Source of the DNA: Sphingopyxis sp. RIFCSPHIGHO2_12_FULL_65_19
GTDB lineage: Bacteria; Pseudomonadota; Alphaproteobacteria; Sphingomonadales; Sphingomonadaceae
Assembly (NCBI RefSeq): GCF_001830555.1
Contig: NZ_MIAM01000014.1
Span: 1,332-65,331, forward strand
Length of the DNA: 64,000 nt
Reading direction: 5' to 3'
Part shown: positions 39,553 to 63,215 of the stretch, one piece after another
Numbering within the stretch: position 1 is the stretch's first letter
Layout of the letters: each line of letters starts with the position of its first letter
The notes under the pieces: generated by a model
What the model saw: the letters and a program-made list of their open reading frames with translations, nothing else
What the model was told of the DNA's origin: nothing
The model's database searches: none
Translations under genes and position numbers: made by a program

Positions 39553-39597
39553 ACGTTCGTCGCGCCGTTGGCCCGATTGTCGGCCAGCCGATTGCAT
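39553..39597 (+). promoter_or_regulatory. LytTR-type tandem box (ACGTTCGTC-N11-CCGATTGTC) followed 10 bp later by TTGCAT
   Basis: Boxes at 39553-39561 and 39573-39581; same geometry as the sites at 56838 and 58780. Confidence 0.6.
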
Positions 39598-39726
39598 CGG
39601 GAAGGGTGCCAGCCTTGTTGGGCCCATGAGCCTTGCTTCGACCGTCCACCGTTTCGTATCGCCAGCATTCCTGCTGGCCTATTTCATGGATATTCGCGAA
39701 CGGGCCAAGCAGATCAGCCGCGAACC

Positions 39727-40335
39727 ATGTCACGGGACCTGCGGCTGATGTCGACCTGGCACGGCGCGCTGCCGAATTTCTCCCTGGACATGTCTCGGCC
39801 GCTCGCGCGCCTGTTGGGGGATGTCGGCGATTTCCATGATGCCGCGCGCCGGGTCGAAGGCTGGCCCTACGGACGCAACAGTCGTCCACTCGATTATCGC
39901 CTGGTGCCGGTCGAACAGCGAGGGACGTGCACGACCAAACACGCGTTCCTGACCGCTCTGGGCCGCGAACAGCAATGTCCGCTACAATTGCTGATCTGCT
40001 TCTTTGACATGAGCGGCGAAACCCATCCGGCCGTCGCTGAAACCCTTGCCCAGGCTGGCCTGCCGGCCATTCTCGAAGCGCATTGCGTCATCGGGTTTGA
40101 TGGCAAGACGTTCGACATGACGGGGCTACCTCGCGGTGACCGGGCGCCGGAATATTCACGCTTTGCGGAACTATCGCTCGAGCGGCTGGACCAAAAGCCG
40201 GCGCTGCACCGCGCCGCGCTTGCGGCGTGGGCCGCGAACAGGCGAATCGCGGTGCCGATCGAAGCCTTGTGGTCGATACGCGAGCAATGCATCCGCGACT
40301 TGGCGGGCGACCAGCGACAGGAGTTGTACAGATGA
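39727..40335 (+). CDS. Uncharacterised protein with a possible transglutaminase/papain-like Cys-His-Asp triad
   Basis: YGRNS, GTCTTKHAFL, EAHC, FDMTG; start 39727 or 39748. Confidence 0.55.
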   Translation: MSRDLRLMSTWHGALPNFSLDMSRPLARLLGDVGDFHDAARRVEGWPYGRNSRPLDYRLVPVEQRGTCTTKHAFLTALGREQQCPLQLLICFFDMSGETHPAVAETLAQAGLPAILEAHCVIGFDGKTFDMTGLPRGDRAPEYSRFAELSLERLDQKPALHRAALAAWAANRRIAVPIEALWSIREQCIRDLAGDQRQELYR

Positions 40336-40628
40336 CCGTTTATGTGCTGGCCCAAATGACGATTACCGCTCCGTCCCGGTACAATCGGTATCGCGACGCG
40401 TTTCTGCCCACGCTCAAGCCCTTCAACGGCCGCCTTCTGGTTGCCGACCCCAATCCCCGCATCATCGAAGGCGAATGGAACGCCCATAAAGTGATCCTGA
40501 TCGAATTCGATACCGAGGATCTTTTCCGGGCGTGGGTGCAATCGCCCGAATATCAGCGGATCTCGGTCGATCGCCGCGCGGGTGCGATGGGTCCCGTGCT
40601 GCTCCTTCAGCGCGTCGGAGCCGTCTAG
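40332..40628 (+). CDS. DUF1330-family protein
   Basis: MTVYVLAQMTI...YNRY...GRLLV...EGEW...ILIEF...AWVQSPEYQ; ATGA-coupled to the upstream gene. Confidence 0.8.
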   Translation: MTVYVLAQMTITAPSRYNRYRDAFLPTLKPFNGRLLVADPNPRIIEGEWNAHKVILIEFDTEDLFRAWVQSPEYQRISVDRRAGAMGPVLLLQRVGAV

Positions 40629-40796
40629 CCGGCGGGTATATCCGCCGGTTGTTCGTTTTGGTCGAAATGGCCCGCGTGCGTCGGCGCGGCGCCGATGATC
40701 GTCAAAATATCGGGACTTCATCAGCCCGCCATCATCGCCCTCCTGCCTGCGATCCGATAGCCGCCGCGGCAGTTTCGCACTTCAGACCAGAGGCAA

Positions 40797-45818: not shown

Positions 45819-45821
45819 CTA

Positions 45822-46532
45822 TCATCGGCTGCGAACCTCGATCCGCAGTTGATAAATGCCCGGCCCCGTCCGCTCGAAACGCCCGACAACCGACGCTTGC
45901 CAGTCATAGTCGCGCTGCGGGGTCAGTGCGGCACTCACCAGCATCGGCTGCCCGCGATGCGTCGCGGTGACGCGATAGGCCACCGGGCGCAATCCGGTCA
46001 CGACCCAGCCCTCGCCGGTGCTGCGCAGCCGCTTTTCGATCGGCGCGCCGCCGCCGACCGGATGCAGCGTCACCGTCACCTCGTCCAGCGGCGTATAATC
46101 GCCGATGGCCGATTGGACGACCAGCATCCCGCCGACGCCATAAGCATCGTCGGCGGTCTGCTCGACAAAACGCAGCCGGAAATTCCGCACCGCACCGGCA
46201 TTGCCGGCAAAGGGTGCGCGATTGTCGGGGACGAGGTCGACCGTCATGCGCGATCCGTCGATGGTCTGCGTCGCCTTTGCGTGCGCGGTCCAGACGCCCG
46301 GCGGCTGGCGGACGTCGATCCGGTAACGTCCCTGCCGGTCGGTCCGCGCCGACCGGCTGATGCTGCCCCCGCCGGGGTTCGATTGGTAACGCACGGTCAC
46401 TTCGGCACCGGCAATCGGTCGCCCCTGCTCGTCGGCGGCCTGTCCCTGGACGACGCCCTTGACGGGTGCCTGCGCCTGCACGGCGACGGAAACGCCCGCC
46501 AACAGGGCGGCGGCGAACAAAGAACGGGACAT
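45822..46532 (-). CDS. Secreted protein with carboxypeptidase-regulatory-like (transthyretin-fold) domains
   Basis: Signal peptide; VQGQAADEQGRPIAGAEVTV...TDRQGRY. Confidence 0.65.
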   Translation of the reverse strand: MSRSLFAAALLAGVSVAVQAQAPVKGVVQGQAADEQGRPIAGAEVTVRYQSNPGGGSISRSARTDRQGRYRIDVRQPPGVWTAHAKATQTIDGSRMTVDLVPDNRAPFAGNAGAVRNFRLRFVEQTADDAYGVGGMLVVQSAIGDYTPLDEVTVTLHPVGGGAPIEKRLRSTGEGWVVTGLRPVAYRVTATHRGQPMLVSAALTPQRDYDWQASVVGRFERTGPGIYQLRIEVRSR

Positions 46533-46550
46533 CATCGAATCCTCGGCGGT

Positions 46551-47633
46551 TCAGCGGATGGCATAGCGGTTGAAAATCGCGTCGAGCCGCTGCTCGTGCC
46601 GTTCCGACAGTTCGACGCGGCGGCGCGTGAAGTCGGCGACGCGATCCGGCATATAGGCGTCGAGCGTCGCGTCGAAGGCCTTCAACTCGTCGGCGAACCC
46701 CGCATATTCGTCCTTATACGCCTGCTTATACCCCTCGCGCATGTCGAGGAACGTCCAGTCGGTCCGGTGAACATGCGGGTTCCAGCTGTTGCGCACCTGT
46801 TTCAGCGCGCGTTCGGCATCGCGCAGCCGGATCTGCGCCGCGCGCGTTTCCGCATCGCCCAGCGGCGCGATGAAATCATCGACCAGCGGCGCCGGCTGAA
46901 ACCCCGGCGAGCCCAGCGGCGCGATATAATCGTCGGCTTTGGCCGCCTCGCGGGCGTGATAACGCTGCCACGCGCGTTCGAGCGCGCGCCGCGCCTCGAC
47001 CACGCGGCGCACCGCATCCTCCAGCCGGGCGTGCATCACATCGTCGGGCGCATTCACGACGACGATCTGTTCAAATTCGCGTGTCAGCGTGTCGATCTCC
47101 GCAACGGCGGCCTCGATCTCGGACAGTGCGGTCGGGGCGCTCCGACGCGACACGGCAAAGGCGCGCATCGCGCCCGCATAGTGCCGCGCAGCATCGCGAT
47201 AATCGCCGACTGCCTGCAACTGCTCGCCTTCGTCCTCCGACGCGCGTTCGATCCGCCGCCGCAGCCGCTCCTCATCGTCGAGGTGCAGGTCGGCGAGGAT
47301 CGCGGCGGGGTCGACCCCGCTGGCCTCACCCTCGACCTCGACCTCGACCTCGACGGGCGCCGCCGCGCCGCCGCCCGCGCCGTGGCGTGCCATCAACGCA
47401 TTCATCCGCCGCACCACCGCCAGGCATTGCTCGGGGTCGCTTTCGACCAGCGCCGATGCTTCGTCATAGAGCGCCTGCAAGGCGTCCGGCACCTGATACG
47501 GCACGTCGCCGGGCAGCTGTGACACCGCTTCCGCCGCCGACTGGAGCGGGCCGTCGCACGCGCGCGCCATCGCGCTCGCCGGCACCAGCGCCAACGAAAC
47601 GGCGGCGGCAAGGCCGTACCGGCTTGTCAACAT
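46551..47633 (-). CDS. Secreted helical hypothetical protein
   Basis: Signal peptide MLTSRYGLAAAVSLALVPASAMA; two Cys; (VE)4 tract; DD[YF]IAPLG twice. Confidence 0.6.
   Translation of the reverse strand: MLTSRYGLAAAVSLALVPASAMARACDGPLQSAAEAVSQLPGDVPYQVPDALQALYDEASALVESDPEQCLAVVRRMNALMARHGAGGGAAAPVEVEVEVEGEASGVDPAAILADLHLDDEERLRRRIERASEDEGEQLQAVGDYRDAARHYAGAMRAFAVSRRSAPTALSEIEAAVAEIDTLTREFEQIVVVNAPDDVMHARLEDAVRRVVEARRALERAWQRYHAREAAKADDYIAPLGSPGFQPAPLVDDFIAPLGDAETRAAQIRLRDAERALKQVRNSWNPHVHRTDWTFLDMREGYKQAYKDEYAGFADELKAFDATLDAYMPDRVADFTRRRVELSERHEQRLDAIFNRYAIR
47331..47354. repeat. In-frame microsatellite (CTCGAC)4
   Basis: Four exact hexamer copies encoding alternating V/E. Confidence 0.8.
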
Positions 47634-47652
47634 CGCCACGTCCCGCGCTCCG

Positions 47653-48111
47653 TCAGGCCGCCTCGGCGGGGCATGTCGGCGACGCGAACGCACCCACCTG
47701 CCGCGTGCGAATGACGTGCGTCTCGCCGTTCAGCTTCATCTCCATCACGCCCTCGACGTCAAAGGATTCCCGCTCGAACGTCCCGTCGATATTCAGCCGG
47801 CTGCCCGACGGATGCCGCGCGGCCACTTCGATCGTGCCGCCCGACATGCGGTTGGTGTCGATCGTCCAGCCGTCCTCGACCGTCCCCGGCACCGCGAAGC
47901 GCCCGGCCGCGACATCCGCCGCCTCGATGCACCGCGCGTCCTGATGATCGACGTCGCCGGTCTGGACGACGCGGTAAAAGCCCGCGCGCAGCGGTTCGCT
48001 GCTGGCGCTCGGCGTCGCGCGTCCCTTCGCATCGTCATTCTCGGCCGAGCTGCACCCGGCCAGAAACAGGACCCCGCCAACGATCGACAGGGCTTTGGAT
48101 CGGCTCAGCAT
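47653..48111 (-). CDS. Hypothetical lipoprotein
   Basis: Lipobox LFLAGC; two further Cys (ARCIE, PTCPA); start overlaps the upstream stop. Confidence 0.7.
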   Translation of the reverse strand: MLSRSKALSIVGGVLFLAGCSSAENDDAKGRATPSASSEPLRAGFYRVVQTGDVDHQDARCIEAADVAAGRFAVPGTVEDGWTIDTNRMSGGTIEVAARHPSGSRLNIDGTFERESFDVEGVMEMKLNGETHVIRTRQVGAFASPTCPAEAA

Positions 48112-48428
48112 TTCGGCCGCTCCGGCGGTGGCGCCATGCGACTGGTGGCATCGGCGACGTCGATCGCGGTGTTCGCGGCCGAATTGACGAGCGCGCCGCC
48201 GGTCCCCGCCTTGCCGGCGACGACACTGAGCAACCCGGAACTGCGCGCCGCGCGCAGCAAGCCGCCCAGCCCCTTCTTTTTCTTTTTCTTGCACGCCTTG
48301 GCGGGGTCGACCGCCGCGGCCTGGTCGGGCGCCGCAGCGACCGGCTTGTCCTCTTCCCTGGGGGTCGCCGCCGAAGCGGGGACGACCAGGGCAAATGCGG
48401 GCAGGACCGCCCAAAAAGCAGGTTTCAT
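48105..48428 (-). CDS. Small secreted hypothetical protein (107 aa)
   Basis: RBS GAGGAG; signal peptide; CKKKKKKGLGGLL...C. Confidence 0.65.
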   Translation of the reverse strand: MKPAFWAVLPAFALVVPASAATPREEDKPVAAAPDQAAAVDPAKACKKKKKKGLGGLLRAARSSGLLSVVAGKAGTGGALVNSAANTAIDVADATSRMAPPPERPKC

Positions 48429-51600: not shown

Positions 51601-54523
51601 CGACGCTGCCCGAGATGGTGCCATTATTGGTGATGCGTTCGGACCCGGTGCTGCCGGTGAAGGTATATTGGCCTTCGCTGCGCACCGTGTCACCTGCGTC
51701 GACCTGGATCGAAATATTGGCAAGGCCGACGGAAGCCACATCGAAATCGCCGACGACCGACAGGATGCCGGTGCCCTGCGGCACGCCCGCGAGACCCTCG
51801 ATCCGCTCGAACTGACGATATTTGGCAGCGTCGAGCCGGCCGTTTTCGCTGCCGCTGCCGTCGATCAGCAGCGTATCGGTGCCGTCGCCGCCGAAGGCCG
51901 TTCCAGTCAACGTTCCGCCGAGCGCGAAGACATAGGCGTCGTCGCCTTCGCCCATCCGCACATCGCCCTCGACCGTGCCGCGATTCTCAAATCGGTCGTC
52001 GCCATCGGCCAGGTCGACATTGCCGATGATATTGCCTTCGTTGACGATGTCATCGGTGGTGCCAAAGGTCTGGATGGCGCTCGCGACCACCCGTTCGTCG
52101 TCGGAGTTGTTGATGGCGTCGGGGATATCCATCGCGGTGCGGCGGACAATGTCATTTTCCGCGAACACCGTGTCGACGCCGCTGCCGCGGATCGTGCCGC
52201 TGTTGGTCATGCGGAAGAACGAGCGCCCTGCGCCATCGGGATTATTGGCTTGGACGAACACGGCAACCGAGTCTGCGCCGGTCGATTCGATCGTCCCGTC
52301 ATTCTCCAGCTCGACGATCGCATTATCGCCATCGATCTGCGCGCCGAAACCATAAGCAAGCGCCGTGCCGCCATCGATATCGGCGCCGCCGCCATTGGCG
52401 CGGATCGTGCCGCTGTTGCGCACCGATGCGACGGTTTCGGGCTCGCCGCTCAATGTGCTGCCTTTGGCGATGACCGTCAGGCCGCTGCCGCCTGCGCCGC
52501 TGCCGTCGATCGTGCCGCTGTTGTCGATGTCGATCGATGCCGCTTCGATTCGGACGCCGCCGTCGATACGGCTGCCGGCCGAAATCTCGCCCGCATTGTC
52601 CAGTTCGACGCGGCCCAGCGACCGCACGGTCATGCCGAAATCGCTGTCGGCGTTCGAGCCGGGGGTTGTCTGTGCGATCCGCCCGCCTGCGCTGTTCGTG
52701 ATCCGCGCAAGATGATCTTCTGACGAGAAAGCCGCAAAAAAGGCCGAGCTATTTTGCGACGTGGCGGAAATAAGCCCCGAGTTGATGAAATCCAGCCTAT
52801 CGCCGTCGGTCGACCCGCTTTCCAGCCTGACGCCCAGGCTTCCGGTCATCGATCCTTCGTTGCGGATCGTTCCGCTGAAACCCTCACCGAAGAGCGCATA
52901 GTTGCTCGAATTAATGTCGCCGCGATTCACAAAAGTGCCGCCGCCCGGGATATTCGCGATACCCCGCAAATAGGCGCCATAGCTGGCGCCCGACGCGATG
53001 TCGGCGTCGTTGACGACCGTTCCGTCGCCGATCATCTGGATGCCGTTCGACAGCGCGCCTTCGGCGGTGACGGTCACGACCGTGTCGGTACCAGAGGCCT
53101 CGATGCCGTGCATCTCGAACCCGCTGCGCCCGTCGATGTTGAGCATGTTGTTGGCAAGCGCAACGTTCGCGCTTGCCGAATAGGATCGGCCATAGGCGTC
53201 GTGGTCCCCGCTGCCACCCTGAATGCTGCCGGTAACGGTGCCGTTGCCCTTCGCAAGATAGATGTCGTTCCCCTGCCCCAGGTCGATATCGCCGACGATC
53301 GTCCCTTCGTTGACGACGACGTCCGTGCCGGTGCTTCCCTGATAGGCGGTGGTGCTGGTGCCGGTGCTCTCGAATGCGCTGCCGACCCGGATCAGGCCCT
53401 GCGCGCCGTTGCGCAGCACCGTGGTCGGACTTGAGCCCTGCGACCGCACCGCTGCTCCGAACAGGCTGGAAATTTCTCCATCGTTGACGATCAGGGTGTT
53501 GCCCTGCGCCAGAATCGCATCGCCCGACGCCTGGATCTTGCCGATCTGGCCGCCGTTGCGCCGGTTGACGATCGTCGCGTCGGTCGCATGGATCGCGTTC
53601 GCGTTGGTGCCGCCCGCGGCGCGCGTGTTGATGCCGGAAATCGTGCCAAGATTATCGACCGAACTGGTCGTGCGGATCGCCGCCGATCCATTGATAGTGG
53701 GAAGCGAGGTCTCGCGAATCTGCACGGTTGCGCCCGCCTCGACAAAGGTTTCTGCTTCGCCGGCATTCAGCGCGGTTCCGCTGGTGGTGCTGAGCGTGAC
53801 GTTGCCCGCCACCCGGACGCTGTCGGCGGCCCGCGCATCGACAAGCTCGTTTACGCCATTGTTTGCCCGTCCGTTCTGGTTCGCGCGAATGACCAGGTCG
53901 ATCTTGCCGTCGCCCCCCTCGCCCAATCCGCGCGAGGTCGAAACGTCCCGAACGACGATCGCCGACCGGCCTTCTGCGGCGGTCGTATTGACCACCGCAT
54001 CGACATAGATCGTGCCGTCTCCGCCCAGGTTGAGCGTTTGCTCCATCTCGTTGTTCACGCCCACGCCCGGCGCGGTGAGTGTCAGGATCGAATCATTGCC
54101 CGACGCTTCATACCCGACCGCGCCAAAGGTGCGGCCATCGGCGAGCTGCGCCGTGCCCTCGAACACCGTCTCGGTCGTCGTGCCTTGCGCACGAAGCCAC
54201 AGCTGATCGACGCCGTCCTCCATAATCAGGTCGCCGGTGAAGAGCGCCGGGCTGTTCGCCGTCGCACCCAGGTTCACGTCGCCTGTCGCATGATCGAGAC
54301 GCCCGCCGTTCATGTCGAGCACGACCCGGCCATCCGCTCGCGGCACCGCAACATCGCCCTGCTGCGTCTGGCCGTCGGGCAGATAGATGAACTCATCGTC
54401 CGTCTGCGCCTGTGCCGCCGACGCCAGGATGATCGAAATGCCGGCGGCGCTCGCCAGCAACGACGTGCGGCTGAGCGCGCGGGAGACGCGGGGACGGGCG
54501 ATGCGGGGGTGGGTGAGTTTCAC
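48659..54523 (-). CDS. Large autotransporter (1954 aa) with RTX-like Ca-binding repeats in the passenger domain
   Basis: Long signal peptide ending AAQA; more than a dozen GGxGxD/LGxGxD nonapeptides; TLSPGASPGTMTVNGD; C-terminal beta-barrel ending GLSIRF; GTG start after AAAAGG. Confidence 0.9.
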   Translation of the reverse strand: MKLTHPRIARPRVSRALSRTSLLASAAGISIILASAAQAQTDDEFIYLPDGQTQQGDVAVPRADGRVVLDMNGGRLDHATGDVNLGATANSPALFTGDLIMEDGVDQLWLRAQGTTTETVFEGTAQLADGRTFGAVGYEASGNDSILTLTAPGVGVNNEMEQTLNLGGDGTIYVDAVVNTTAAEGRSAIVVRDVSTSRGLGEGGDGKIDLVIRANQNGRANNGVNELVDARAADSVRVAGNVTLSTTSGTALNAGEAETFVEAGATVQIRETSLPTINGSAAIRTTSSVDNLGTISGINTRAAGGTNANAIHATDATIVNRRNGGQIGKIQASGDAILAQGNTLIVNDGEISSLFGAAVRSQGSSPTTVLRNGAQGLIRVGSAFESTGTSTTAYQGSTGTDVVVNEGTIVGDIDLGQGNDIYLAKGNGTVTGSIQGGSGDHDAYGRSYSASANVALANNMLNIDGRSGFEMHGIEASGTDTVVTVTAEGALSNGIQMIGDGTVVNDADIASGASYGAYLRGIANIPGGGTFVNRGDINSSNYALFGEGFSGTIRNEGSMTGSLGVRLESGSTDGDRLDFINSGLISATSQNSSAFFAAFSSEDHLARITNSAGGRIAQTTPGSNADSDFGMTVRSLGRVELDNAGEISAGSRIDGGVRIEAASIDIDNSGTIDGSGAGGSGLTVIAKGSTLSGEPETVASVRNSGTIRANGGGADIDGGTALAYGFGAQIDGDNAIVELENDGTIESTGADSVAVFVQANNPDGAGRSFFRMTNSGTIRGSGVDTVFAENDIVRRTAMDIPDAINNSDDERVVASAIQTFGTTDDIVNEGNIIGNVDLADGDDRFENRGTVEGDVRMGEGDDAYVFALGGTLTGTAFGGDGTDTLLIDGSGSENGRLDAAKYRQFERIEGLAGVPQGTGILSVVGDFDVASVGLANISIQVDAGDTVRSEGQYTFTGSTGSERITNNGTISGSVDLGAGDDIVVNSGTIRGDVLLGAGNDRYVARAGSVIEGLLDGGEGIDTFEFLLAGDTGNLPSGLNGFESYAARGQGTINVTLDQDIDTIELLEGANLILNDGMGTIQNIVGDDSNNAVTVTGTLAGGVNLGGGDDTLNLTLAGILSGALDGGAGTDTLNLTLTNASTINGMNGFEVANIFGEAQLTLGNLGAGQTVNFDGSDNELIIGSGAAFDGTVNGGEGRDLLRIQSGADENRTVIAAQIQNFEDLESEGPGTLALIGGAYSFQTVGIDGALELGAGSSLTSAGGVTFGSGDNRFLLASGATVTGGVDGGDGNDLLQLNQGEGTVRALSSVGATNFERLESSGAGELRFDLDSTFDSVSIDGGLTTIVAGTTLTAPVIGGAANDTLAVLGSLVGDVDLGAGDDRLILASFDPANSYAGGAGVDTIELRTASTYENPFAFSGDEIADFERLAVSGGVVSLTGDTSWDGVSITGGRLIGQAGTTITSSSAILVGAGATFGSAGTVNADIDVRGTLSPGASPGTMTVNGDVTFRTGSNLLLELTPTVSDLLNISGTMTIEQGAAVDITGALQGSPGELLDLVVAEGGIEGRFTTINKSATIFGFVVQNGNRLQIRSEFENDAAYPSNVRTSIDYSNQVLRGGYGVQAYTDALNILTDAEGRANRTAFAQLTGEAYASALHIGADAALTLSASTRQMVAFAPKRDGLFLFGQAAMGDGKLRGSARTGASGGHSSTDGVYGGIGYGFGENSQAGLFIGSLDTRQSLGALGATTKADGFAVGAYANARLGGLGMHAMIARVGSDATTRRSLLAAPSSAAVGRYDLDSWVADLTVDYGMALGDIRLAPRVGLTYVDTKRDAVAENGAGAFALSIDKKRMRGLYGDVALQLSSTLDAGGTAFTPYVEMGYRFALDGMSASATGGFTGAPGAGMRVDGARLDRSAANLAAGASIDLAPSVRVNVGYSRDLGNKDRGTFSGGLSIRF

Positions 54524-54661
54524 GGGTGGGGACCTTTTCAATGACCTGAATGGTTGCCGGAGCGCACACGGGGCACCCTCCGGCGTCGCCACGCGACCGG
54601 GGGAGTCCACATGGCGTCCGGCGCATTGGCCGACGGGCACCAACGCCGGGATAGCCAGCGC

Positions 54662-54690
54662 GACCAATGGCGCACTCACGCGATCAATGG
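54662..54690 (-). promoter_or_regulatory. LytTR-type tandem box (CCATTGATC-N11-CCATTGGTC on the minus strand)
   Basis: Boxes at 54682-54690 and 54662-54670, oriented toward the autotransporter. Confidence 0.68.
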
Positions 54691-54766: not shown

Positions 54767-55957
54767 ATGGCTTTTGCGGCGCCGGCGATCCAGACCGCCA
54801 ACAATCATTCAACAGCGATGGGCACCATGATTCAGCCGTTTGCGAATTCACCTCTGTCAAAGCGCGCCAGCGGCTCCGCCGCGGCGCAGCCCCTCGTCTT
54901 TGCCATCTGGATCACAAGCTATCTGGCGATAGATCTCATCATGTGGGCCGGGGGACGATCGACCCTGGTCAGCAATATCGTCATCAGCTTGCCGATGATG
55001 CTCACCGCCCCGTTGCTGACGATGCGGCTCGACCGGCTGCGACGGCGGCTGCTCCCCCTCGGCGGCGTCCCGGTCACGCTCGTGCTGGTCCCCGCCGCCT
55101 TTGGCGCGGCCATGATGCAGGGCGCGGTCGACTATGCCTCGGTCCGCGTCGCGGCGGCGATGCTCTTTCCCGACTGGCAGGTCCATGTCCCGACCGAGCA
55201 TCGCCAGTTCGGCTTCGGCATTTACGTCTATACCCTGCATTTCCTGTGCTGCCTGCTGGCCCTGACGTTGCTTCAGGCCCGGCAGTCGGTCGAAGTCGCC
55301 GTCCGGCGGCATGACGAGGCGCTGGGCGCCCGGCGCCGGGCAGAGGCACAGGCGCTCCGCCTTCAGCTCAATCCGCATTTCCTGTTCAACGCGCTCAATT
55401 CGATCGCGGCGCTGGTCGCGACCGGCGGGAACCGCGTCGCCGATGCGATGATCTGCCGCCTCAGCGACTTCATGCGCGCCACCATGACGGGCGCCGCGGA
55501 AAGCGACGTCAGCCTGGCAAAGGAAATTGCGACCACCGAATCCTATCTGGCGATCGAGCGGCTTCGGTTCGGCGATCGGCTGCGCTTCGCCTTCAACGTC
55601 GCGCCCGATGCATGGGACGCCACCACCCCGCCGCTTATCCTGCAACCGCTGGCCGAAAATGCCGTCAAACATGGCCTCGCGATCCCGCATAGCGCCATCC
55701 ATGTGCAGACCGACGTCGAACGCGTCGGCGACCTGCTCGCCATCACCGTCACCGACCGGCGCGTCGCCACGGGCGCCGACGCTGTCCGCGTCGTCCCCGA
55801 CGGCACCGGGGTCGGCCTGGGCAATGTTCGCGATCGCGTCGCCTTGTTCGGCGCCAGCGGCGGGCAGGTCGAAACCGAGGTCCTCGACGACGGCTTTTGC
55901 GTCCGACTGGTCCTTCCCTATCGGCGTTTCGCGACAGCGGGGGAGGTCGCGCAATGA
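54767..55957 (+). CDS. LytS/YehU-family membrane sensor histidine kinase
   Basis: N-terminal TM helices; QLNPHFLFNALNSI H-box; QPLAENAVKHG; GTGVGLGNV. Start may be 54818 or 54827. Confidence 0.92.
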   Translation: MAFAAPAIQTANNHSTAMGTMIQPFANSPLSKRASGSAAAQPLVFAIWITSYLAIDLIMWAGGRSTLVSNIVISLPMMLTAPLLTMRLDRLRRRLLPLGGVPVTLVLVPAAFGAAMMQGAVDYASVRVAAAMLFPDWQVHVPTEHRQFGFGIYVYTLHFLCCLLALTLLQARQSVEVAVRRHDEALGARRRAEAQALRLQLNPHFLFNALNSIAALVATGGNRVADAMICRLSDFMRATMTGAAESDVSLAKEIATTESYLAIERLRFGDRLRFAFNVAPDAWDATTPPLILQPLAENAVKHGLAIPHSAIHVQTDVERVGDLLAITVTDRRVATGADAVRVVPDGTGVGLGNVRDRVALFGASGGQVETEVLDDGFCVRLVLPYRRFATAGEVAQ

Positions 55958-56793
55958 AAGGGCGCATCGAACGGCCGCTGGATATTGTCGCGATCGACGA
56001 CGAACCGCTGGCGCTCGCGCGACTGGCGCTGCTCGTTCGCGATATACCCGGCACCCGGCTGGTCGGATCGATCGGCGATCCGGACGTCGCCCTGTCGTGC
56101 ATCGCGGAGCGCCGGCCCGACATCGTCCTGCTCGATATCGAAATGCCGGGCACAAACGGCATCGAACTGGCGTCGAAGCTCCTCCATATGGACGGTTATC
56201 GCCCGTTCGTCATTTTTGTGACCGCGTTCCAGCACCATGCGATAACGGCCTTTCAGGCGCAGGCGATCGACTATGTCCTGAAACCCGTCACCTATGCGCG
56301 CCTGGCACAAGCGATCGCCCGCGTCCGCATCCTGGTGCATCATCAGCGCATGTCGGCCGAGGCGCGCGACTATGAACGGCGCCTGCTGGAGCTGCACGAA
56401 TCGGCGGGTCCGCAACATGATCCGCGCGACGGCGAAGAGATTTGGGCATCGCGGGGAAGCGAGTTCGTGCGGCTGCGGACCGGCGAGATCGAGCGCGCGG
56501 AATCCGAACGCGACTATGTCCATATCCACAACGCCGAACGCGCGTTTCTTCTCCGCACCACGCTCGGCGCGCTGCACGACCGATTGGGGCACGACCGTTA
56601 TGTTCGCGTCCGCCGTTCCGCGATCGTCAGGCTCGATCGCATCAGCGCCGTCCGCAACCGCGGATATGGCGATATTCAGATCCTGCTGCGGTCCGGCGCC
56701 ACGGTGCAGGTCGGGCGAACCTACCTGAAACCGCTGCGGCAGCGAATGATCGGGATCAATCCCGCCAGGCGGTTCGACCTGTTGGACGCTTGA
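55954..56793 (+). CDS. LytTR-family response regulator
   Basis: DDEPLA, LLDIEMPG, FVTAF, YVLKP; LytTR tail ERDYVHIH...YVRVRRSAIV...VGRTY; ATGA-coupled to the kinase. Confidence 0.94.
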   Translation: MKGRIERPLDIVAIDDEPLALARLALLVRDIPGTRLVGSIGDPDVALSCIAERRPDIVLLDIEMPGTNGIELASKLLHMDGYRPFVIFVTAFQHHAITAFQAQAIDYVLKPVTYARLAQAIARVRILVHHQRMSAEARDYERRLLELHESAGPQHDPRDGEEIWASRGSEFVRLRTGEIERAESERDYVHIHNAERAFLLRTTLGALHDRLGHDRYVRVRRSAIVRLDRISAVRNRGYGDIQILLRSGATVQVGRTYLKPLRQRMIGINPARRFDLLDA

Positions 56794-56837: not shown

Positions 56838-56882
56838 CCGTTCGTCGAACGATCGCCGCGTTCATCGCAAATCCGCTTGCCA
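56838..56882 (+). promoter_or_regulatory. LytTR-type tandem box (CCGTTCGTC-N11-GCGTTCATC) followed 10 bp later by TTGCCA
   Basis: The first box is identical to the AlgR core CCGTTCGTC. Confidence 0.75.
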
Positions 56883-56956: not shown

Positions 56957-57670
56957 GTGAACGGATTGACGGGGTTGGCAGGAACGCTGGCAGTGTTGTT
57001 GCTGCTGGGACTGGTCGTTGGCTTTGCTGATCGTCAGCGCTTTTCCGTGCGCTGGCTTCTGGTCGCGGCCCTGCTCGTGGCGCTCAACGACATGCTGCTT
57101 ACGCGCGCCTATGGGCTGCTTCCCGAACTGATCGGCGGATCGTGGAACTGGCAGGGCAAGCTGCTCGCGCTTTGCGCAACGCTTGCCGTCGCTTCCTTGC
57201 CGGCCTTCGGCTGGCGCCGCGCTGGCCTGACGCTGTCGCAGGAGCCCGGAAGCCTGCGCGCCGCCCTGCCGGTCGCGGCGCTTTATTGCGCCTTCTTCAT
57301 TGCCATCGCGCTCGCCTTCCCCGGCGAGCCTGCGGATGTGGAAACGGCCGCTTTTCAACTGACCATGCCGGGTATCGAAGAGGAACTCTTCTATCGCGGC
57401 CTGCTGTTGTTCGCCCTCGACCAGGCATTCCGCGGCCGACGGCGGTTTCTGGGTGTCGATTGGGGCTGGGGCGCCGTGCTGTCCTCTATGCTGTTCGGGA
57501 TGGCCCATGCTTTCGGATATTCGGATGGGCAATTCTCGTTCGACGCGATCACAATGGCGCTGACCGCCGTTCCCGCATTCCTTGCGGTCTGGTTGCGTCT
57601 GCGAACGGGCAGTGTGCTTCTGCCCGTCCTCCTTCACAATTTCGGCAACTCTTTTTCCCTGTTCGTCTGA
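56957..57670 (+). CDS. CPBP (CAAX protease/Abi family) intramembrane metalloprotease
   Basis: GIEEELFYRG, FGMAH, LLHNFGN; multiple TM helices; GTG start after GAAAGG (alternative 56939). Confidence 0.9.
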   Translation: MNGLTGLAGTLAVLLLLGLVVGFADRQRFSVRWLLVAALLVALNDMLLTRAYGLLPELIGGSWNWQGKLLALCATLAVASLPAFGWRRAGLTLSQEPGSLRAALPVAALYCAFFIAIALAFPGEPADVETAAFQLTMPGIEEELFYRGLLLFALDQAFRGRRRFLGVDWGWGAVLSSMLFGMAHAFGYSDGQFSFDAITMALTAVPAFLAVWLRLRTGSVLLPVLLHNFGNSFSLFV

Positions 57671-57695
57671 CGGCGACACCGAAAGTCGCGGCGAT

Positions 57696-58538
57696 ATGAT
57701 CCTGTCTTTCCTGCCTGCCCTGTCCGCCCTGTTCTTCCAGCCCGCCGCCGACGCGCCGCTGGTCGTCGCATCCTATCTTTATCCCGGTGTCGACCGCCAT
57801 GCCGCGCTCGTCCCGCTGGCCGATCGCGTCGCACGGGCCGCGAAACGGCCGGTGCGGATCGAATTGTTCGGAAATCCGGATGCGCTGTCACAGGCGGTTT
57901 GCGACGGGCGGGTCGACGTGGCGATGACCAATCTCGGCGCCTATGTGACGATGCGCGATTGCCCGGCCGTCGCCGCTGTCGCCGTGCTCGACGTGCCCCC
58001 TGCCATGCTGGAAAAATATCGCGGCGTGCTGCTCACCCGCGCCGATACCGGCATCGCCGGGCTTGGCGACCTTGTCGCAAAGGCCGCCGAAATTCGATAC
58101 AGCGAAGTCTTGCCCGGATCGACGTCGGGCGCGCTTGTCCAGGCGGCGGAACTGCGGACGCTTGGCCTCTCGCCCGGCCGCTTTGCCGAAACGCGCCATT
58201 CGGGCACCCATGATGCCGCGCTTCAGGATTTGCTGACCGGACGGGCCGATCTTGCCGCATCGGCCGAACAGCCCTGGCACCGGATGCAAATGGCGCAGCC
58301 CGGCCGCGCCGCGACGCTCCGCCTGCTGTGGCGTTCCGCGCCCTTGCCACCCGGCCCGGTCGTGTGCCGCGCGGCGGCGGCGGTGCCCTGCGCCGCGATC
58401 CGCGATGCCCTGCTGGCCGATGACGCCGCCGACGCCGCGCGGGCTTTGTCCGGGGGCTGGATCGAAACGCGCGGATCGGAAAAGTTCCGCGCTTATGACG
58501 AGGCGACCTACGCGCCGTTCAAACGGGACACAGACTGA
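57696..58538 (+). CDS. PhnD-like phosphate/phosphonate-type solute-binding protein with no adjacent ABC genes
   Basis: Signal peptide; YRGVLLTR, STSGAL, THDAALQDLLTGRADLAA, PPGPVV. Confidence 0.75.
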   Translation: MILSFLPALSALFFQPAADAPLVVASYLYPGVDRHAALVPLADRVARAAKRPVRIELFGNPDALSQAVCDGRVDVAMTNLGAYVTMRDCPAVAAVAVLDVPPAMLEKYRGVLLTRADTGIAGLGDLVAKAAEIRYSEVLPGSTSGALVQAAELRTLGLSPGRFAETRHSGTHDAALQDLLTGRADLAASAEQPWHRMQMAQPGRAATLRLLWRSAPLPPGPVVCRAAAAVPCAAIRDALLADDAADAARALSGGWIETRGSEKFRAYDEATYAPFKRDTD

Positions 58539-58595
58539 CGGACTTGCCGTCGTCGGGAATCGCCATTCCAATTGGGGCTTTGCGCTGACCCTAAT

Positions 58596-58633
58596 GATGT
58601 CGGGGAACGCGCGGAACCGCGCTCCCCGACATC
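58596..58633. other. Strong hairpin GATGTCGGGGA...TCCCCGACATC
   Basis: 11-bp outer stem plus an inner CGCG stem; no U-tract on either side. Confidence 0.6.
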
Positions 58634-58706
58634 GCCATGCAAGCGGGACTGCTCATTGGCAGCTACGGATATGCCGCCCTTCGACCAGCAAGGGGATAGG
58701 CGACCC

Positions 58707-58735
58707 GACGAACGGCGTGCTCGCGCGACGAAATG
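58707..58735 (-). promoter_or_regulatory. LytTR-type tandem box (CATTTCGTC-N11-CCGTTCGTC on the minus strand) with no annotated gene downstream
   Basis: Boxes at 58727-58735 and 58707-58715. Confidence 0.65.
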
Positions 58736-58779: not shown

Positions 58780-58824
58780 CCGTTCGTCGCAGCCCTCGCG
58801 CGTTCGTCGCGCACCGCCTTGCCC
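58780..58824 (+). promoter_or_regulatory. LytTR-type tandem box (CCGTTCGTC-N11-GCGTTCGTC) followed 10 bp later by TTGCCC
   Basis: Boxes at 58780-58788 and 58800-58808. Confidence 0.75.
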
Positions 58825-58875: not shown

Positions 58876-59904
58876 ATGCCGCTTTCCTACCGCACCCTGC
58901 TGCTCGTCAGCCTGGCCCTGCCGCTCCCCGCGGTGGCGCAGACGCCCCCTCCCACCCCGAACCAGTCGGCGGCGGAGTCGCGGCGCGAAATCGCGAACAG
59001 CCGGCGCGAAGCGCGCACGAATCTGGAGCGCGGCATACGCGGCGAAATCGACCCGCGCGAAATCCGGCGCGCGCGTGAAGCGGGCCCGGCCGGCAGCTCG
59101 GCCGTGGCGCCAGAGGTCATCGCGCGCTGGCAAGCCACGCCGCCGCAGCAGCTGGGCACCGATCCCGATTTCGTGCGCGCGATGCAGAATGAAGACCCCG
59201 CCGCTCTCGCCCATTGGGAAGGCGTGCTGATGGAAATGAACCGCGATTTGAATGCAGACGCGGGATCGCGCCGGTGGTTGGGCGGCCCGGTCCTTATCCC
59301 CGATCAGGACACGGTCCATATCACGGTCGGCGACCGCCCCAACCAACCGCCAGCGCGCCGGGGCGTAAAGCGCAAGCCCGCCGAAGAAAAGCGCCAGGAC
59401 GAAACGCCGCGCCGGAAACGCAATCCGATTCAGGAACGCGAGGCGCTGGAACGCGACCGGCGCGAGGCGGGCCGCCAATATGCCGACGCCATGCGGCGGC
59501 GCGACGAAAATCCGGGCAATCAGGAACTGATCCGGTTGGCCGAGCGCGAAGCGACGCGAGTCCGGCTCGCCGAAGAAGGCTATCAGGCGTTCCTGCGCGA
59601 ACACGCGCCCGACGAATATCGCGCGCGTCAGCAACAGCTCGAAACGATCGATTGGCGGATGGTGGAGCCGCGTGCGCTCGACCCGTCGAAACTGCCGCGC
59701 CCTGCCGAACCCGCGGAACGCCCGGACGCCCCGCCGCTGTCCGAATATGACGGGCGCCTCGGCACCAATCCCGACCATCGGCTGCGCGGAACGCCCGAAG
59801 GTGGCGAAGGCCCCGTCCTCCCCCCTCGCGCCAATACACAGCCTGCGCCGCAGCGGCCGAAAAGCCCCCAGCTCCCCGAATATCGTCCGCCTGCGGCGGA
59901 TTAG
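58876..59904 (+). CDS. Secreted Arg/Glu/Pro-rich hypothetical protein
   Basis: Signal peptide MPLSYRTLLLVSLALPLPAVA; charged helical middle; Pro-rich tail. Confidence 0.6.
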   Translation: MPLSYRTLLLVSLALPLPAVAQTPPPTPNQSAAESRREIANSRREARTNLERGIRGEIDPREIRRAREAGPAGSSAVAPEVIARWQATPPQQLGTDPDFVRAMQNEDPAALAHWEGVLMEMNRDLNADAGSRRWLGGPVLIPDQDTVHITVGDRPNQPPARRGVKRKPAEEKRQDETPRRKRNPIQEREALERDRREAGRQYADAMRRRDENPGNQELIRLAEREATRVRLAEEGYQAFLREHAPDEYRARQQQLETIDWRMVEPRALDPSKLPRPAEPAERPDAPPLSEYDGRLGTNPDHRLRGTPEGGEGPVLPPRANTQPAPQRPKSPQLPEYRPPAAD

Positions 59905-60026: not shown

Positions 60027-60098
60027 CCCTTATTCGGCGCGCAACGCTATGGCGCGTCGGCGGCCGCCTTCCTTTCCACCGTTGGATCGTCCCATGAC

Positions 60099-60134: not shown

Positions 60135-60153
60135 CGCGTTTCGGCGTGACGTA

Positions 60154-63051
60154 TCAGAAGCTCAGGCTGGCACCGACCGTGAAGGCCCGTCCGAACAGGT
60201 CGAACGCGTCGCCCGTCTCAAGCCCCGTCGGCGTGCCGAACGGCGTGCCGGGCAGGTAGGGCGGCTGGGTGTCGAACACATTGTCGATCCCGAAGTAAAA
60301 GCTGTATTTCCGATCGATCTCATACCGGACCTGCAAGTCGTGCAGCCAGTAATCGTCGATCTTGTTCAGCGCCAGGATGTCGGGATTGGCGCTGGTAAAG
60401 TTCAGCACATAATCGCCGCCGCTCATGAACTTGGTCTGCCAGCTGAAGGTGACATCATCGACCGAATAGGCAGCCCGGCCAGTGAAGCGATGGCGCGAAA
60501 AGGCCTGTCCGAACGTGCCCGCAGCGTCCTCGACCGGCGCGACCGGGTCGGCCTGCGTCGAATTTTCGATCAGGTAGGTATAGTTCGCCGTGATCGACAA
60601 CCGATCGTCGGGGGCGATGCCCAGCCCGGTCCAATAGCGCAGGCCGACGTCGATGCCGCTATTCTTGTATCCGGCGACATTGATCAGCTGGCCGTCGACC
60701 CGCGTGACACGGCCGGTGTTCGCATTGCGGACGACATTGTCGCAATACAGCGGCAGGTCGGTGAGCAGGCACTGCTGGATCGAATAGGTGCGATCGATCG
60801 TGTTGATCGCGCGGTCGATGGCGATGTCATAATAATCGACCGTCAGCGACAGGTTGGGCACCTGCACCGGCGTGATGACCGCACCGATGGTGAAGGTTCG
60901 CGCCTTCTCTTCCTGCAAGTCCAGGTTTCCGCCCTGGAAACCGTTGATGCCCTGCAAATCGGCGAGCGTATATTCAAATATGCCGTTCGCCGCGATCGCG
61001 GCCTGGATCGCCGGGACCGCGCGGCAGGCCGCCGCATATTCGTTCGACGTCGATGCCGTCACGCCGTTGCAGGGATCGGCCACCGACGCAAAGGTTTCGG
61101 ACGGCTGGCCGAACAGTTCGGACGCGTTCGGTGCCCGGTTCGCCTCGGCATAAACGCCGCGCAGGCGCAATCCGTCGAACGGCTCAAGCTCGGCGCCGAC
61201 GTTCCAGCTCAGCACGCTGCCCACCGTCGAATAATCCGACAAGCGTGCCGCCGCGATCAGGCCGAAATGGTCGACGAAGCTGTCGCGGATCAGCGGGACA
61301 TTCACTTCGCCATAGATTTCCTTGACCGAATAGCTGCCGACAAGGTCGGGGGTCTGGTTGCCCGAATTGCCGCCGGTGTTGGTCAGTATGTCCCAGTCGC
61401 TGACCGATTTTTCCTTGCGATATTCAAATCCGATCGCAAACCCGACGTCGCCCGCGCCCAGATCGAACGGCGTGCCGCTGATCGTGGCGGTCGCCACATG
61501 CTGCTGGTTCGTGATTTCCTGCGATTTGGGGATCACCGCCTGGACATAGGCGGCCGCGCGCGGATCGACCGTATCATAACCGAACAGGTTGATCGGAATG
61601 CAACCCTCGGCGCGCGCCGAGGCGTCGGCGCAGACGATATCGACGCCCAGAACATTGCCCGGTCCCACCCGGACGGCATTCAGCGCGTTGCGATAGCGAC
61701 GATTGTCGATATCCTCGCTGGCGTTGTAATCGTTCATATAGCCATAGACATAGCTGGCTTCATATTTGAACCGCGAACCCAGGTCGCCGCGAAGGCCCGC
61801 CACGGCACGCCAGGTGTCGCGCCGCACGACATTGCTGCGGTCGAAAACGTCATTCTGGCGGCGCCGGAACTGGATCGCCGCGACGTCATTGTCAGGGTCG
61901 GCATCGCTGTTGCGCGCCGCGATCGCCGCGGCGACATCGGTGGGGATGAAGGGGTTGGCGATCGACATGCCCAGGTCGTCGGCGCCGGTGTAAACATCGG
62001 TCCACTCCAGCGCGAAGGGCTCGATCTGGCTGTTGGAACTGACCCGGCCATAGGTCAGCTCGCCGAACAGCTCCGCCCCGTCGGCGATGTCGAAATTCGC
62101 GATCGCCGACGCCAGATAGCGTTCGACGGGCACCGAAATATAGCGGTCGTTGTTGCGGTTGTAGCCTGCACCGGCCGGGAAGCCCGCCACGACATTGTTG
62201 CCGCGGTCAAAGGTGAACAGGCTGCCGCCCTGATAGGCGGTGTTGGCAACGCCATCGGCGTCGACAAGGTTGAACCAGCCCTGCGACGCATAGCTGCTGT
62301 AGGATGCGGGGCCGCAGATCAGGCCCGCGCAATCCTGGGCCGATCGGGCGCGATTGCGCGACAGCAGCCCGTCGTCGCGGTCATAGGTGAAATTCACCAG
62401 AATGTTGCCGCGATCGTCGGCGCCAAAGCTGGTGCCGGCGGTGACGCTGGTCATATAGCGCGCGTTATCGCCCCGGCCGGTCAGGCCGGCCTGGCCGCGG
62501 ATCGAAACCCCCTCGAAACGGTCCTTCAGGATGAAGTTCACGACGCCCGCGACGGCATCCGAACCATAGACCGCCGACGATCCGCCGGTGACGATCTCGA
62601 CCCGCTCGACGAAATCGGTCGGGATATTGTTGACGTCGACCGCCGAATCCCCGGGAAGCCCGCCGACCATGCGGCGGCCGTTGACCAGCACCAGCGTGCG
62701 CGACTCGCCCAGGCCTCTGAGGTCGATCGTCGCCACGCCGGTTCCGGAAATCAGGAAGTTGGAATTGGCGCGCGTCAGGCCGATCGCCACCTGCGGCATT
62801 TCGTTCAGCGTGTCCTGGATATTCTGCGCGGCGTCATATTGCAGGTCGCTGTTGCTGACCACCGACAGCGGCACCGGGGCATCCACATCGTGGCGCGCGA
62901 TACGCGATCCGGTCACGACGATCGCCTCCCCCTCGGTGGCGGCGTCGTTCGCCATTTCCTGGGCGGCGGCCGGTCCCGAAATCAGCGCCACCGCGATGGC
63001 AACGGACGCAGCACCGGCACCCAGAAGGCGCCCGCGAACAGTCTTATTCAT
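60154..63051 (-). CDS. TonB-dependent receptor (965 aa)
   Basis: Signal peptide; EAIVVTGSRI; IDLRGLGESRTLVLVNGRR; ERVEIVTGGSSAVYGSDAVAGVVNFILK; terminal Phe. Confidence 0.95.
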   Translation of the reverse strand: MNKTVRGRLLGAGAASVAIAVALISGPAAAQEMANDAATEGEAIVVTGSRIARHDVDAPVPLSVVSNSDLQYDAAQNIQDTLNEMPQVAIGLTRANSNFLISGTGVATIDLRGLGESRTLVLVNGRRMVGGLPGDSAVDVNNIPTDFVERVEIVTGGSSAVYGSDAVAGVVNFILKDRFEGVSIRGQAGLTGRGDNARYMTSVTAGTSFGADDRGNILVNFTYDRDDGLLSRNRARSAQDCAGLICGPASYSSYASQGWFNLVDADGVANTAYQGGSLFTFDRGNNVVAGFPAGAGYNRNNDRYISVPVERYLASAIANFDIADGAELFGELTYGRVSSNSQIEPFALEWTDVYTGADDLGMSIANPFIPTDVAAAIAARNSDADPDNDVAAIQFRRRQNDVFDRSNVVRRDTWRAVAGLRGDLGSRFKYEASYVYGYMNDYNASEDIDNRRYRNALNAVRVGPGNVLGVDIVCADASARAEGCIPINLFGYDTVDPRAAAYVQAVIPKSQEITNQQHVATATISGTPFDLGAGDVGFAIGFEYRKEKSVSDWDILTNTGGNSGNQTPDLVGSYSVKEIYGEVNVPLIRDSFVDHFGLIAAARLSDYSTVGSVLSWNVGAELEPFDGLRLRGVYAEANRAPNASELFGQPSETFASVADPCNGVTASTSNEYAAACRAVPAIQAAIAANGIFEYTLADLQGINGFQGGNLDLQEEKARTFTIGAVITPVQVPNLSLTVDYYDIAIDRAINTIDRTYSIQQCLLTDLPLYCDNVVRNANTGRVTRVDGQLINVAGYKNSGIDVGLRYWTGLGIAPDDRLSITANYTYLIENSTQADPVAPVEDAAGTFGQAFSRHRFTGRAAYSVDDVTFSWQTKFMSGGDYVLNFTSANPDILALNKIDDYWLHDLQVRYEIDRKYSFYFGIDNVFDTQPPYLPGTPFGTPTGLETGDAFDLFGRAFTVGASLSF

Positions 63052-63186
63052 TTTTTTGCACTCCCTGTTGAAAGCCCATGGCGCCGGAGCGAATTCGCTT
63101 CCCTTGGCGCGCGTGGCTGTCGCCCGCGAGGCTGCGGACGCGAACGCAGCCATAGGAATATCCCGCCATCAACAGACACCCCTTGC

Positions 63187-63215
63187 GCCCAATGGTGCAG
63201 TGCCGCGACAAACGG
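63187..63215 (-). promoter_or_regulatory. LytTR-type tandem box (CCGTTTGTC-N11-CCATTGGGC on the minus strand)
   Basis: Boxes at 63207-63215 and 63187-63195, oriented toward the TonB receptor. Confidence 0.62.

Follow-up and report, generated by a model that had tools for sequence, protein, structure and literature searches.

Seven tandem AlgR-type repeats around a LytTR two-component pair in a Sphingopyxis accessory island

Introduction

Regulators of the LytTR family bind two imperfect direct repeats of 8–13 bp that lie about 12 bp apart, a spacing that is critical (review, PMC4064291/PMC4787818). The core site of AlgR is 5'-CCGTTCGTC-3', and the footprinted variants CCGTTTGTC (algD-RB3), CCGTTGGTC (mucR), and CCGTTCATC (czcR) have been described (PMC4064291, PMC4787818); AlgR sites are mostly unpaired (review, PMC4064291/PMC4787818). 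Among Alphaproteobacteria, the one LytTR protein that we found studied in the literature searched is Caulobacter HigX, a membrane-fused factor that binds envelope and transport promoters and has been linked to a TonB-dependent receptor (PMC13384398). We found nothing in the literature searched that links LytTR regulators to Sphingopyxis or to autotransporters. Here, we analyzed a stretch of 64,000 nt (C14:1332-65331, hereafter the window, to which coordinates refer unless a contig is given) of the 3.87-Mb draft genome (64.5% GC) of Sphingopyxis sp. RIFCSPHIGHO2_12_FULL_65_19. A preliminary description of this window had reported seven tandem LytTR boxes near a LytS/LytTR gene pair and had proposed that this pair controls most of the surrounding genes. 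It had also stated that LytTR regulators bind direct repeats about two helical turns apart, which the review text confirms (PMC4064291/PMC4787818), and the layout of the locus matches this rule.

Our results make it likely that these paired repeats, or dyads, are the operators of the REC-LytTR regulator encoded among them, which would activate six conserved units and a weak seventh one. The circuit is self-contained and travels as an accessory island, with no other such sites in the genome.

Results

Seven dyads with an exact 20-bp period

Gene models were obtained with a codon-usage model (3457 genes, 87% coding), and the intergenic DNA of the genome amounts to 472 kb in total. The two-component pair consists of the following genes.

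54767..55957, plus strand: kinase, LytS-type histidine kinase (PF06580, E = 2.6e-24)
55954..56793, plus strand: response regulator, REC + LytTR (Response_reg PF00072, E = 1.5e-19; LytTR PF04397, E = 1.5e-17)

The seven dyads are listed below; distances run from the end of the dyad to the start codon, and starts were set by ortholog alignments.

39553..39583, plus strand: dyad 1, ACGTTCGTCGC-N9-CCGATTGTCGG, 146 bp before p202 (ATG 39727); the weakest site
48538..48568, minus strand: dyad 2, CCGCTCATCGC-N9-CCGTTCGTCGC, 112 bp before a four-gene operon (48428)
54660..54690, minus strand: dyad 3, CCATTGATCGC-N9-CCATTGGTCGC, followed by CTATCC, 139 bp before an autotransporter gene (GTG 54523)
56838..56868, plus strand: dyad 4, CCGTTCGTCGA-N9-GCGTTCATCGC, then 8 nt and TTGCCA, 91 bp before a CPBP gene (conserved GTG 56957)
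58705..58735, minus strand: dyad 5, CATTTCGTCGC-N9-CCGTTCGTCGG, followed by CTATCC, back-to-back with dyad 6
58780..58810, plus strand: dyad 6, CCGTTCGTCGC-N9-GCGTTCGTCGC, then 8 nt and TTGCCC, 68 bp before an orphan gene (58876)
63185..63215, minus strand: dyad 7, CCGTTTGTCGC-N9-CCATTGGGCGC, 136 bp before a TonB receptor gene (ATG 63051)

All fourteen half-sites of the preliminary description read as written, in position and in strand, and the exact 20-bp period that it claimed was borne out, with an 11-bp spacer between the 9-mers in all seven pairs. The 9-mers that it gave as boxes are correct, but the full half-site is 11 nt long (CCGTTCGTCGC), with two further conserved bases; the consensus across 26 sites is cCgTTcGTCGC. 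The core CCGTTCGTC and all three footprinted AlgR variants are found among the half-sites, in agreement with the AlgR-type identity that had been proposed. All seven dyads are intergenic, as had been stated: the upstream open reading frame (ORF) extensions that overlap some of them are not conserved in frame in ortholog alignments. The reported range of 68–146 bp to the downstream start likewise holds for all six gene-facing dyads when starts are fixed by orthologs. The arrangement is that of an operator, i.e., two imperfect direct repeats of 9–11 bp with an 11-bp spacer upstream of target genes. Dyad 3 is located in the divergent intergenic region common to the autotransporter and kinase genes, and dyad 6 is the top-scoring site of the seven.

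Overrepresentation in the genome

We built a position weight matrix (PWM) from the fourteen half-sites and scanned the whole genome for pairs at period 20. The seven dyads scored 25–32 bits and all were intergenic; the next-best match in the genome reached 21.4 bits, and all other matches of at least 17 bits fell inside coding sequence. Dyads of this kind are thus found in intergenic DNA only in the island within the 3.87-Mb genome. Because the matrix was trained on these same sites, leave-one-out rescoring was conducted with the 11-nt model: each omitted dyad still ranked in the top seven of approximately 1 million intergenic positions, behind only its six siblings, including dyad 1 with a score of 18.6. 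Dinucleotide shuffling of the complete intergenic DNA, repeated 40 times, gave an expectation of 0.025 sites of at least 25 bits, against seven observed. In a further, training-free scan, we required two copies of the AlgR consensus as published and allowed no more than two mismatches in total. This yielded four intergenic pairs at period 20, all of them in the island, and zero or one at the other periods from 12 to 39. In the island DNA of nine genomes, period 20 accounted for 37 strong dyads, and each of the other periods between 12 and 31 for four or fewer.

An intergenic excess at period 26 was traced to a REP-like repeat family and set aside. This family (CCGTTCGCCCTGAGCTTGTCGAAGGGCCGTTCTTC) holds two AlgR-like half-sites 26 bp apart. 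One copy lies in the window at 59992-60026 on the minus strand, in a convergent gap next to a strong bidirectional terminator (60102-60135), and at least six other intergenic copies are present (C18:7848, C18:7934, C21:5740, C49:119747, C55:6066, and C64:56041).

Conservation across Sphingopyxis genomes

Five other Sphingopyxis genomes retain the dyads at the orthologous promoters. These genomes carry a syntenic accessory island of about 22 kb that extends from a 643-aa TonB receptor to the 965-aa one (G003, G002, G102 (= L038), G110 (= L039), and G075), and its flanks differ in each carrier genome. A diverged version of the island is found in G108. Six dyads are present in each of G003, G102, and G075 and four in G110, and G002 presents three above threshold plus a degenerate fourth. 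Dyad 3 is kept in all seven island versions. Dyads 6 and 7 are kept in all five orthologous islands, the proximal half-site of dyad 7 being weaker. Dyad 2 is kept in G003, G102, G110, G075, and G108 and is degenerate yet recognizable in G002. Dyads 4 and 5 are kept in G003, G102, and G075; dyad 4 is missing along with its genes in G002 and G110.

When orthologous promoters were anchored on the dyad, pairwise identity was 0.81 for the distal half-site and 0.91 for the proximal one, compared with 0.70 for the spacer, 0.43 for the upstream flank, and 0.54–0.60 downstream. We then scanned 136 genomes of the genus with a degenerate pattern, which catches 18 of the 26 known sites. Clustered dyads were detected only in six of them (G000, which is this genome, G002, G003, G075, G102, and G110), and orthologs of the regulator with at least 75% identity were found in exactly the same six of the 136 genomes.

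No further genome with a dyad cluster was identified among 300 genomes from 112 genera of the family. One genome of another genus (G362:C3:38327-43362) presents a good dyad, GCATTCGTCGT-N9-CCGTTCGTCG, between two LytTR genes, and in G212 a dyad lies 5.5 kb from a LytTR gene. In view of these two cases, use of the motif may be wider within the family.

The kinase/regulator pair and its paralog

In the kinase, a sensor that crosses the membrane several times is followed by the PF06580 domain and an ATPase domain. The HATPase_c match of 22 bits is just below the Pfam cut-off, and the motifs NPHFLFN, ENAVKHG, and GTGVGLGN, which resemble H, N, and G boxes, can be read in the sequence. Hydropathy indicates four or five hydrophobic segments at residues 43-169 without a periplasmic domain, in a protein of only about 376–396 aa. 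Neither 5TMR-LYT nor GAF was found in the kinase with Pfam, even when E values up to 5 were accepted on the N-terminal 190 residues. The kinase is therefore not of the LytS proper/BtsS type, as these sensor domains are absent. Its true start is probably the conserved ATG at 54827 (MIQP...) rather than the longest-ORF start at 54767, because indels in the orthologs are not multiples of three. Upstream of this ATG stand a conserved CATGATT, AAAATCAG, and CCATCAGG, which may represent the kinase promoter.

The start of the regulator gene overlaps the kinase stop by 4 bp (ATGA). When the regulator is aligned, its receiver domain shows an acidic pocket (DDE), the phospho-acceptor Asp within LLDIEMPG, and the Lys of the LKP motif. 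The best NCBIfam model for this protein is BtsR (NF008677) with 131.7 bits against a cut-off of 246, which falls short of an equivalog assignment. Four LytTR proteins are encoded in the genome: that of the island and one on each of the contigs C6, C24, and C39.

A paralog-type regulator, 53–57% identical to that of the island, is found in this genome (contig C6) and in G053, G059, and G108. In G053 and G059, the paralogous kinase/regulator pair adjoins a different autotransporter (1357 or 1681 aa) that is 27–28% identical to that of the island. Two dyads with the island motif stand in tandem before this autotransporter gene, 63 bp, or six helical turns, apart, and the proximal dyad is followed by a CTATCC element, as in the island. 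No CadC-like gene is present at either of the two loci.

G053:C1 about 782800-783210: paralog locus (L121)
G059:C4 about 54860-54930: paralog locus (L123)

The locus in G108 (C5:115000-134999, L125) is a mosaic in which an island-type kinase without a regulator of its own is followed by an unrelated ORF and then by a paralog-type regulator and kinase. The autotransporter and most of the four-gene operon are retained as well, together with the dyads that precede them. Since these dyads are adjoined by a paralog-type regulator only, the two regulator types probably read the same sites. Overall, the association of a LytTR pair, a dyad, and an autotransporter appears to be the system's ancient core. 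Beside the C6 paralogous pair of this genome, we observed a 2.7-kb stretch of 58% GC (G000:C6:73839-76568) with one 437-aa ORF of atypical composition; the C6 locus presents no dyads and no autotransporter remnant.

Mode of action and alternative explanations

A near-invariant T(T) is found 8–9 nt after the proximal 11-mer and starts one of the hexamers TTGCCA, TTGCCC, TTGCAT, TTATGC, or TATCCC. No consensus sigma-70 promoter was detected at any dyad with a consensus scan, as expected for activator-dependent promoters. We rejected a sigma-54 promoter, a candidate raised by TGGCA-like motifs, because no TTGC stands at the required 5 nt.

In the mechanism that we propose, the membrane-embedded LytS-type kinase, with its intact H, N, and G boxes, would sense a membrane or envelope signal and phosphorylate the REC-LytTR regulator of the island. 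A dimer of the regulator would then occupy the two direct repeats of 9–11 bp, 20 bp from center to center. The proximal repeat ends 8 nt before the T-hexamer, which we read as a −35-like element, so that the bound regulator could recruit RNA polymerase to promoters without a sigma-70 consensus. The units switched on in this manner would be the four-gene exported operon, the 1954-aa autotransporter, the CPBP and PhnD-like genes, the orphan, the 965-aa TonB receptor, and a short leader-derived transcript, with p202 as a weak seventh unit in this genome. The analysis shows the sites, how unique and conserved they are, and that they co-occur with the regulator; that the regulator binds them, that it activates and does not repress, that the hexamer is a −35 element, and what is sensed are inferences, and activation from just upstream of a −35-like hexamer is our preferred reading. 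The preliminary proposal that the dyads are LytTR operators of the adjacent pair is supported by the protein domains, the AlgR-type half-site, the geometry, the conservation, the co-occurrence, and the paralogous loci. As to the broader suggestion that the pair drives most of a 24-kb block, six promoters are conserved and site 39553 is weak.

Several observations weigh against this interpretation. The left arm, which encodes the 643-aa TonB receptor and ChaN-like and CadC-like proteins, lacks any conserved dyad, and the counterpart of dyad 1 in G075, the one ortholog examined, is degenerate (score 4.8). The promoters of dyad 5 (P_small) and of the autotransporter (P_AT) are duplicates, which leaves effectively six independent promoters rather than seven. 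Co-occurrence of dyads and regulator is partly a matter of linkage, given that both lie in one island. No dyad faces the kinase gene, and autoregulation, the positive feedback typical of agr- and com-type circuits, is not evident. Candidate −10 regions, located 17 bp downstream of the T-hexamer, are poor matches and vary from promoter to promoter, which makes the −35 assignment and the class of activation uncertain. If the T-hexamer is instead read as a −10 element, the proximal box would overlap the −35 position. Finally, the situation in G108 indicates that more than one regulator may use the sites.

Four other explanations were weighed against regulation by the island pair. That the matches are the product of chance, picked by eye from a GC-rich sequence, deserves practically no credence. 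Single CCGTTCGTC-like 9-mers are frequent, with 98 copies of the exact 9-mer in the genome (20 of them intergenic), and loose matching with up to four mismatches gives 123 matches at period 20, similar to other periods. Only well-matching pairs with a period of exactly 20 bp carry the specificity. Chance is contradicted by leave-one-out rescoring, the shuffles, the period histogram, the orthologous conservation, and the phyletic co-occurrence; the scan, the leave-one-out test, the shuffles, and the co-occurrence already refute it. The dyads could also be a duplicated promoter cassette, or the sites of an alternative sigma factor or of a CadC-like winged-helix protein rather than of a LytTR regulator. 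P_small demonstrably duplicates P_AT and the island does encode a CadC-like regulator, with Trans_reg_C and PD40 domains in Pfam, but beyond these two promoters the spacers and flanks share no similarity, and the half-site is that of AlgR. OmpR- and CadC-type domains bind repeats about 10–11 bp apart and not 20 bp, which counts against a CadC-like binder. The presence of dyads and a LytTR pair in G053 and G059 without any CadC-like gene argues in the same direction, and on this ground we rejected the CadC-like protein as the binder. We regard this explanation as very improbable.

It is conceivable, though improbable, that the dyads are LytTR operators whose main binder is another LytTR protein of the cell (the C6 paralog or the C24 or C39 protein), the island pair being secondary. 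The presence of four LytTR proteins in the genome, the G108 dyads that adjoin only a paralog-type regulator, and the paralog type located by the same motif in G053 and G059 are all compatible with this view. All seven sites, however, surround the island pair, the C6 locus has no dyads of its own, and genomes of the genus with only the C24 type have no clustered dyads; cross-talk with the paralog fits regulation by the island pair without replacing it. The last alternative accepts the regulator as the binder but considers it mainly as a repressor or roadblock. Reading the T-hexamer as a −10 would place the boxes over the −35 and spacer region, and some promoters are repressed by AlgR (review, PMC4064291/PMC4787818). 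We nevertheless consider repression unlikely: the promoters lack consensus sigma-70 elements, which is typical of activator-dependent promoters, and tandem boxes that are fixed upstream and point toward the gene constitute the layout of activated LytTR promoters (review, PMC4064291/PMC4787818).

Target genes

The genes downstream of the dyads are the following.

39727 (start), plus strand: p202, 202 aa; no family match, atypical codon usage, GC 62.6%
40332-40628, plus strand: DUF1330 gene (Pfam); its start is overlapped 4 bp by p202
45822..48428, minus strand: four-gene operon of exported proteins (107 aa; 152-aa lipoprotein; 362-aa helical; 232-aa CarboxypepD_reg-like)
48659..54523, minus strand: autotransporter, 1954 aa (PF03797, E = 1.2e-35, residues 1691-1935); conserved GTG start
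56957..58538, plus strand: CPBP (Rce1-like) membrane protease and PhnD-like periplasmic binding protein (PF02517, PF12974)
58876..59904, plus strand: secreted orphan, 342 aa, Arg/Glu/Pro-rich; signal peptide, orthologs 74–93% identical
60154..63051, minus strand: TonB-dependent receptor, 965 aa (Plug + TonB_dep_Rec_b-barrel); 92–95% identity

In the conserved target units, every product has a signal peptide or a lipobox or is a membrane protein. The programme of envelope or surface remodelling that had been suggested is a possible reading, based solely on this exported or membrane nature of the conserved targets. The 965-aa TonB receptor is the best-conserved protein of the island. Signal peptides or a lipobox could be read from the sequences of the four-gene operon, whose orthologs are syntenic in six genomes. 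The autotransporter presents a C-terminal beta-domain, a long passenger, and an N-terminal signal peptide of the extended type, in line with type Va autotransporters; its passenger is Gly/Asp-rich and beta-helix-like, with repeats. Sequence searches of Pfam, NCBIfam, and PDB matched no family or solved structure for the orphan or for the 107-, 152-, and 362-aa proteins, and relatedness between the 362-aa protein and the orphan was not detectable. Two of the target proteins look disordered or coiled-coil.

The CPBP and PhnD-like genes downstream of dyad 4 are accessory cargo and variably present (PhnD is missing in G003, and CPBP and PhnD are both missing in G002 and G110). A role of the two proteins as parts of the sensor is disfavoured, as G002 and G110 lack them and keep the kinase, the regulator, and the core dyads. 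The p202 protein, a putative Cys-His-Asp protein in the preliminary description, has no match in Pfam, NCBIfam, or PDB. The gene itself is real: its orthologs (71% identity) were found solely in the island-bearing genomes G075 and G102.

A tRNA-Arg(TCT) gene at 63390-63466 on the minus strand, 175 bp past the last dyad, marks the island's right edge. This tRNA is the sole real Rfam match in the region.

The autotransporter leader and its duplicate at dyad 5

Two further conserved elements are associated with the autotransporter promoter.

54555..54586, minus strand: hairpin in the 5' leader of the autotransporter, 14-pair stem (RNAalifold on 10 leaders)
58595..58673, minus strand: conserved 79-nt block, 3' of dyad 5 (about 91% identity, four genomes)

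The leader hairpin lies about 30–60 nt before the start codon and has orthologous leaders in G003, G102, G075, G002, G110, and G108. Compensatory double changes were identified in six of the 14 pairs across the 10 sequences, and this covariation argues that the hairpin is real. It may act as an attenuator, as a stabiliser, or as a protein-binding element. No Rfam family matches any of the leaders or the 79-nt block.

The site at 58735 (dyad 5) had been reported to precede no gene. No ORF follows it, but the region is not empty, as it carries a duplicated promoter and leader of the autotransporter. The autotransporter leader of G110 matches the 79-nt block at 88% identity, and the module shares with the autotransporter promoter and leader the dyad, the CTATCC element, a CCAATG motif, a strong hairpin (58596-58633; −43.7 kcal/mol, z = −5.7), and an AAAGG stretch. 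This stretch precedes the start codon of the autotransporter, whereas no ORF comes after it in the dyad 5 copy. By these similarities, the module is a truncated duplicate of the autotransporter promoter and leader. It may be either a relic or a candidate small RNA. If transcribed, it would produce an RNA of about 70 nt ending in the hairpin, or an antisense transcript running into the 3' end of the PhnD-like gene. We rejected the idea that a 21-codon ORF after dyad 5 is a gene, since G102 and G075 have ATA in place of its ATG and conservation is lacking at its C-terminus.

A more ambitious view, which we put forward as a speculation with the odds against it, is that the island forms a portable cassette for sensing and display that regulates itself and adds a second layer of control through RNA. 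In this view, the leader hairpin would act as an attenuator or other regulatory structure, and its copy without an ORF would be expressed as a small RNA under its own LytTR box. Were this the case, the locus would provide an alphaproteobacterial arrangement similar to agr, with one LytTR regulator in command of both a regulatory RNA and genes for surface proteins. It would also present an AlgR-type half-site read in strict tandem and thus a natural system to understand why AlgR needs no pairs.

Comparison with known systems

One of the closest known systems is AlgZ(FimS)/AlgR of P. aeruginosa, which likewise comprises a PF06580 kinase whose sensor lies entirely within the membrane and a REC + LytTR regulator. 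Surface or envelope targets and the same 9-bp core with its variants are also common to both. In contrast, AlgR binds mostly single 9-mers at widely varying distance and orientation in a global regulon of 157 ChIP loci (PMC4064291, PMC4787818), whereas the sites described here are strict 20-bp tandem pairs at a fixed promoter distance in one island. The neighbouring genes (autotransporter, CPBP, and TonB receptor) are unrelated to the alg, fimU, alginate, or pilus loci, and the N and G boxes visible in the sequence of the island kinase are a further difference. The likeness to AlgR is one of half-site and domains, and the best NCBIfam model for the regulator is BtsR at a sub-cut-off score.

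In layout, the locus resembles the operators of AgrA (P2/P3), ComE, PlnC/D, VirR, YpdB, and BtsR, which are spaced direct repeats upstream of activator-dependent promoters. As with canonical LytTR tandem operators, the regulon would be local, located beside the two-component genes, and devoted to exported products. These canonical operators have a spacer of about 12 bp (period 21), compared with 11 bp (period 20) in the island, where the half-site is of the AlgR type and the host is an alphaproteobacterium. A further difference is that neither a peptide pheromone nor a box directed at the kinase-regulator operon for autoregulation was seen in the island. The E. coli systems BtsS/BtsR (YehU/YehT) and YpdA/YpdB also pair a LytS-type kinase with a LytTR regulator and control few local targets. 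BtsR is the best-scoring curated model for the island regulator, yet with a score well below its cut-off, and the island kinase differs from BtsS by the lack of detectable 5TMR-LYT and GAF domains and by targets that are not carbon-starvation transporters. HigX is a single-component protein with four transmembrane helices that recognizes an 8-bp inverted repeat without spacer (PMC13384398), unlike the island system, which is built as a classical phospho-relay with a REC + LytTR regulator and direct repeats.

The locus could place about ten exported proteins whose function is unknown in one regulatory context, along with a large autotransporter and a highly conserved TonB receptor. As an experimentally tractable regulon of six or seven promoters, it would allow a test of how strict 20-bp phasing and the AlgR-type half-site combine in LytTR recognition, and it should be useful in the search for what a minimal LytS-type kinase confined to the membrane senses. 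As a type of circuit it is ordinary, and the value of the locus lies in its annotation and in its quality as a model rather than in a new principle. Overall, the island represents a familiar type of circuit, previously unmapped in this group. It stands out by its host, an alphaproteobacterium, by an AlgR-type half-site that is used in strict 20-bp tandem, by an autotransporter target whose leader carries a covarying hairpin, and by the duplicated leader module.

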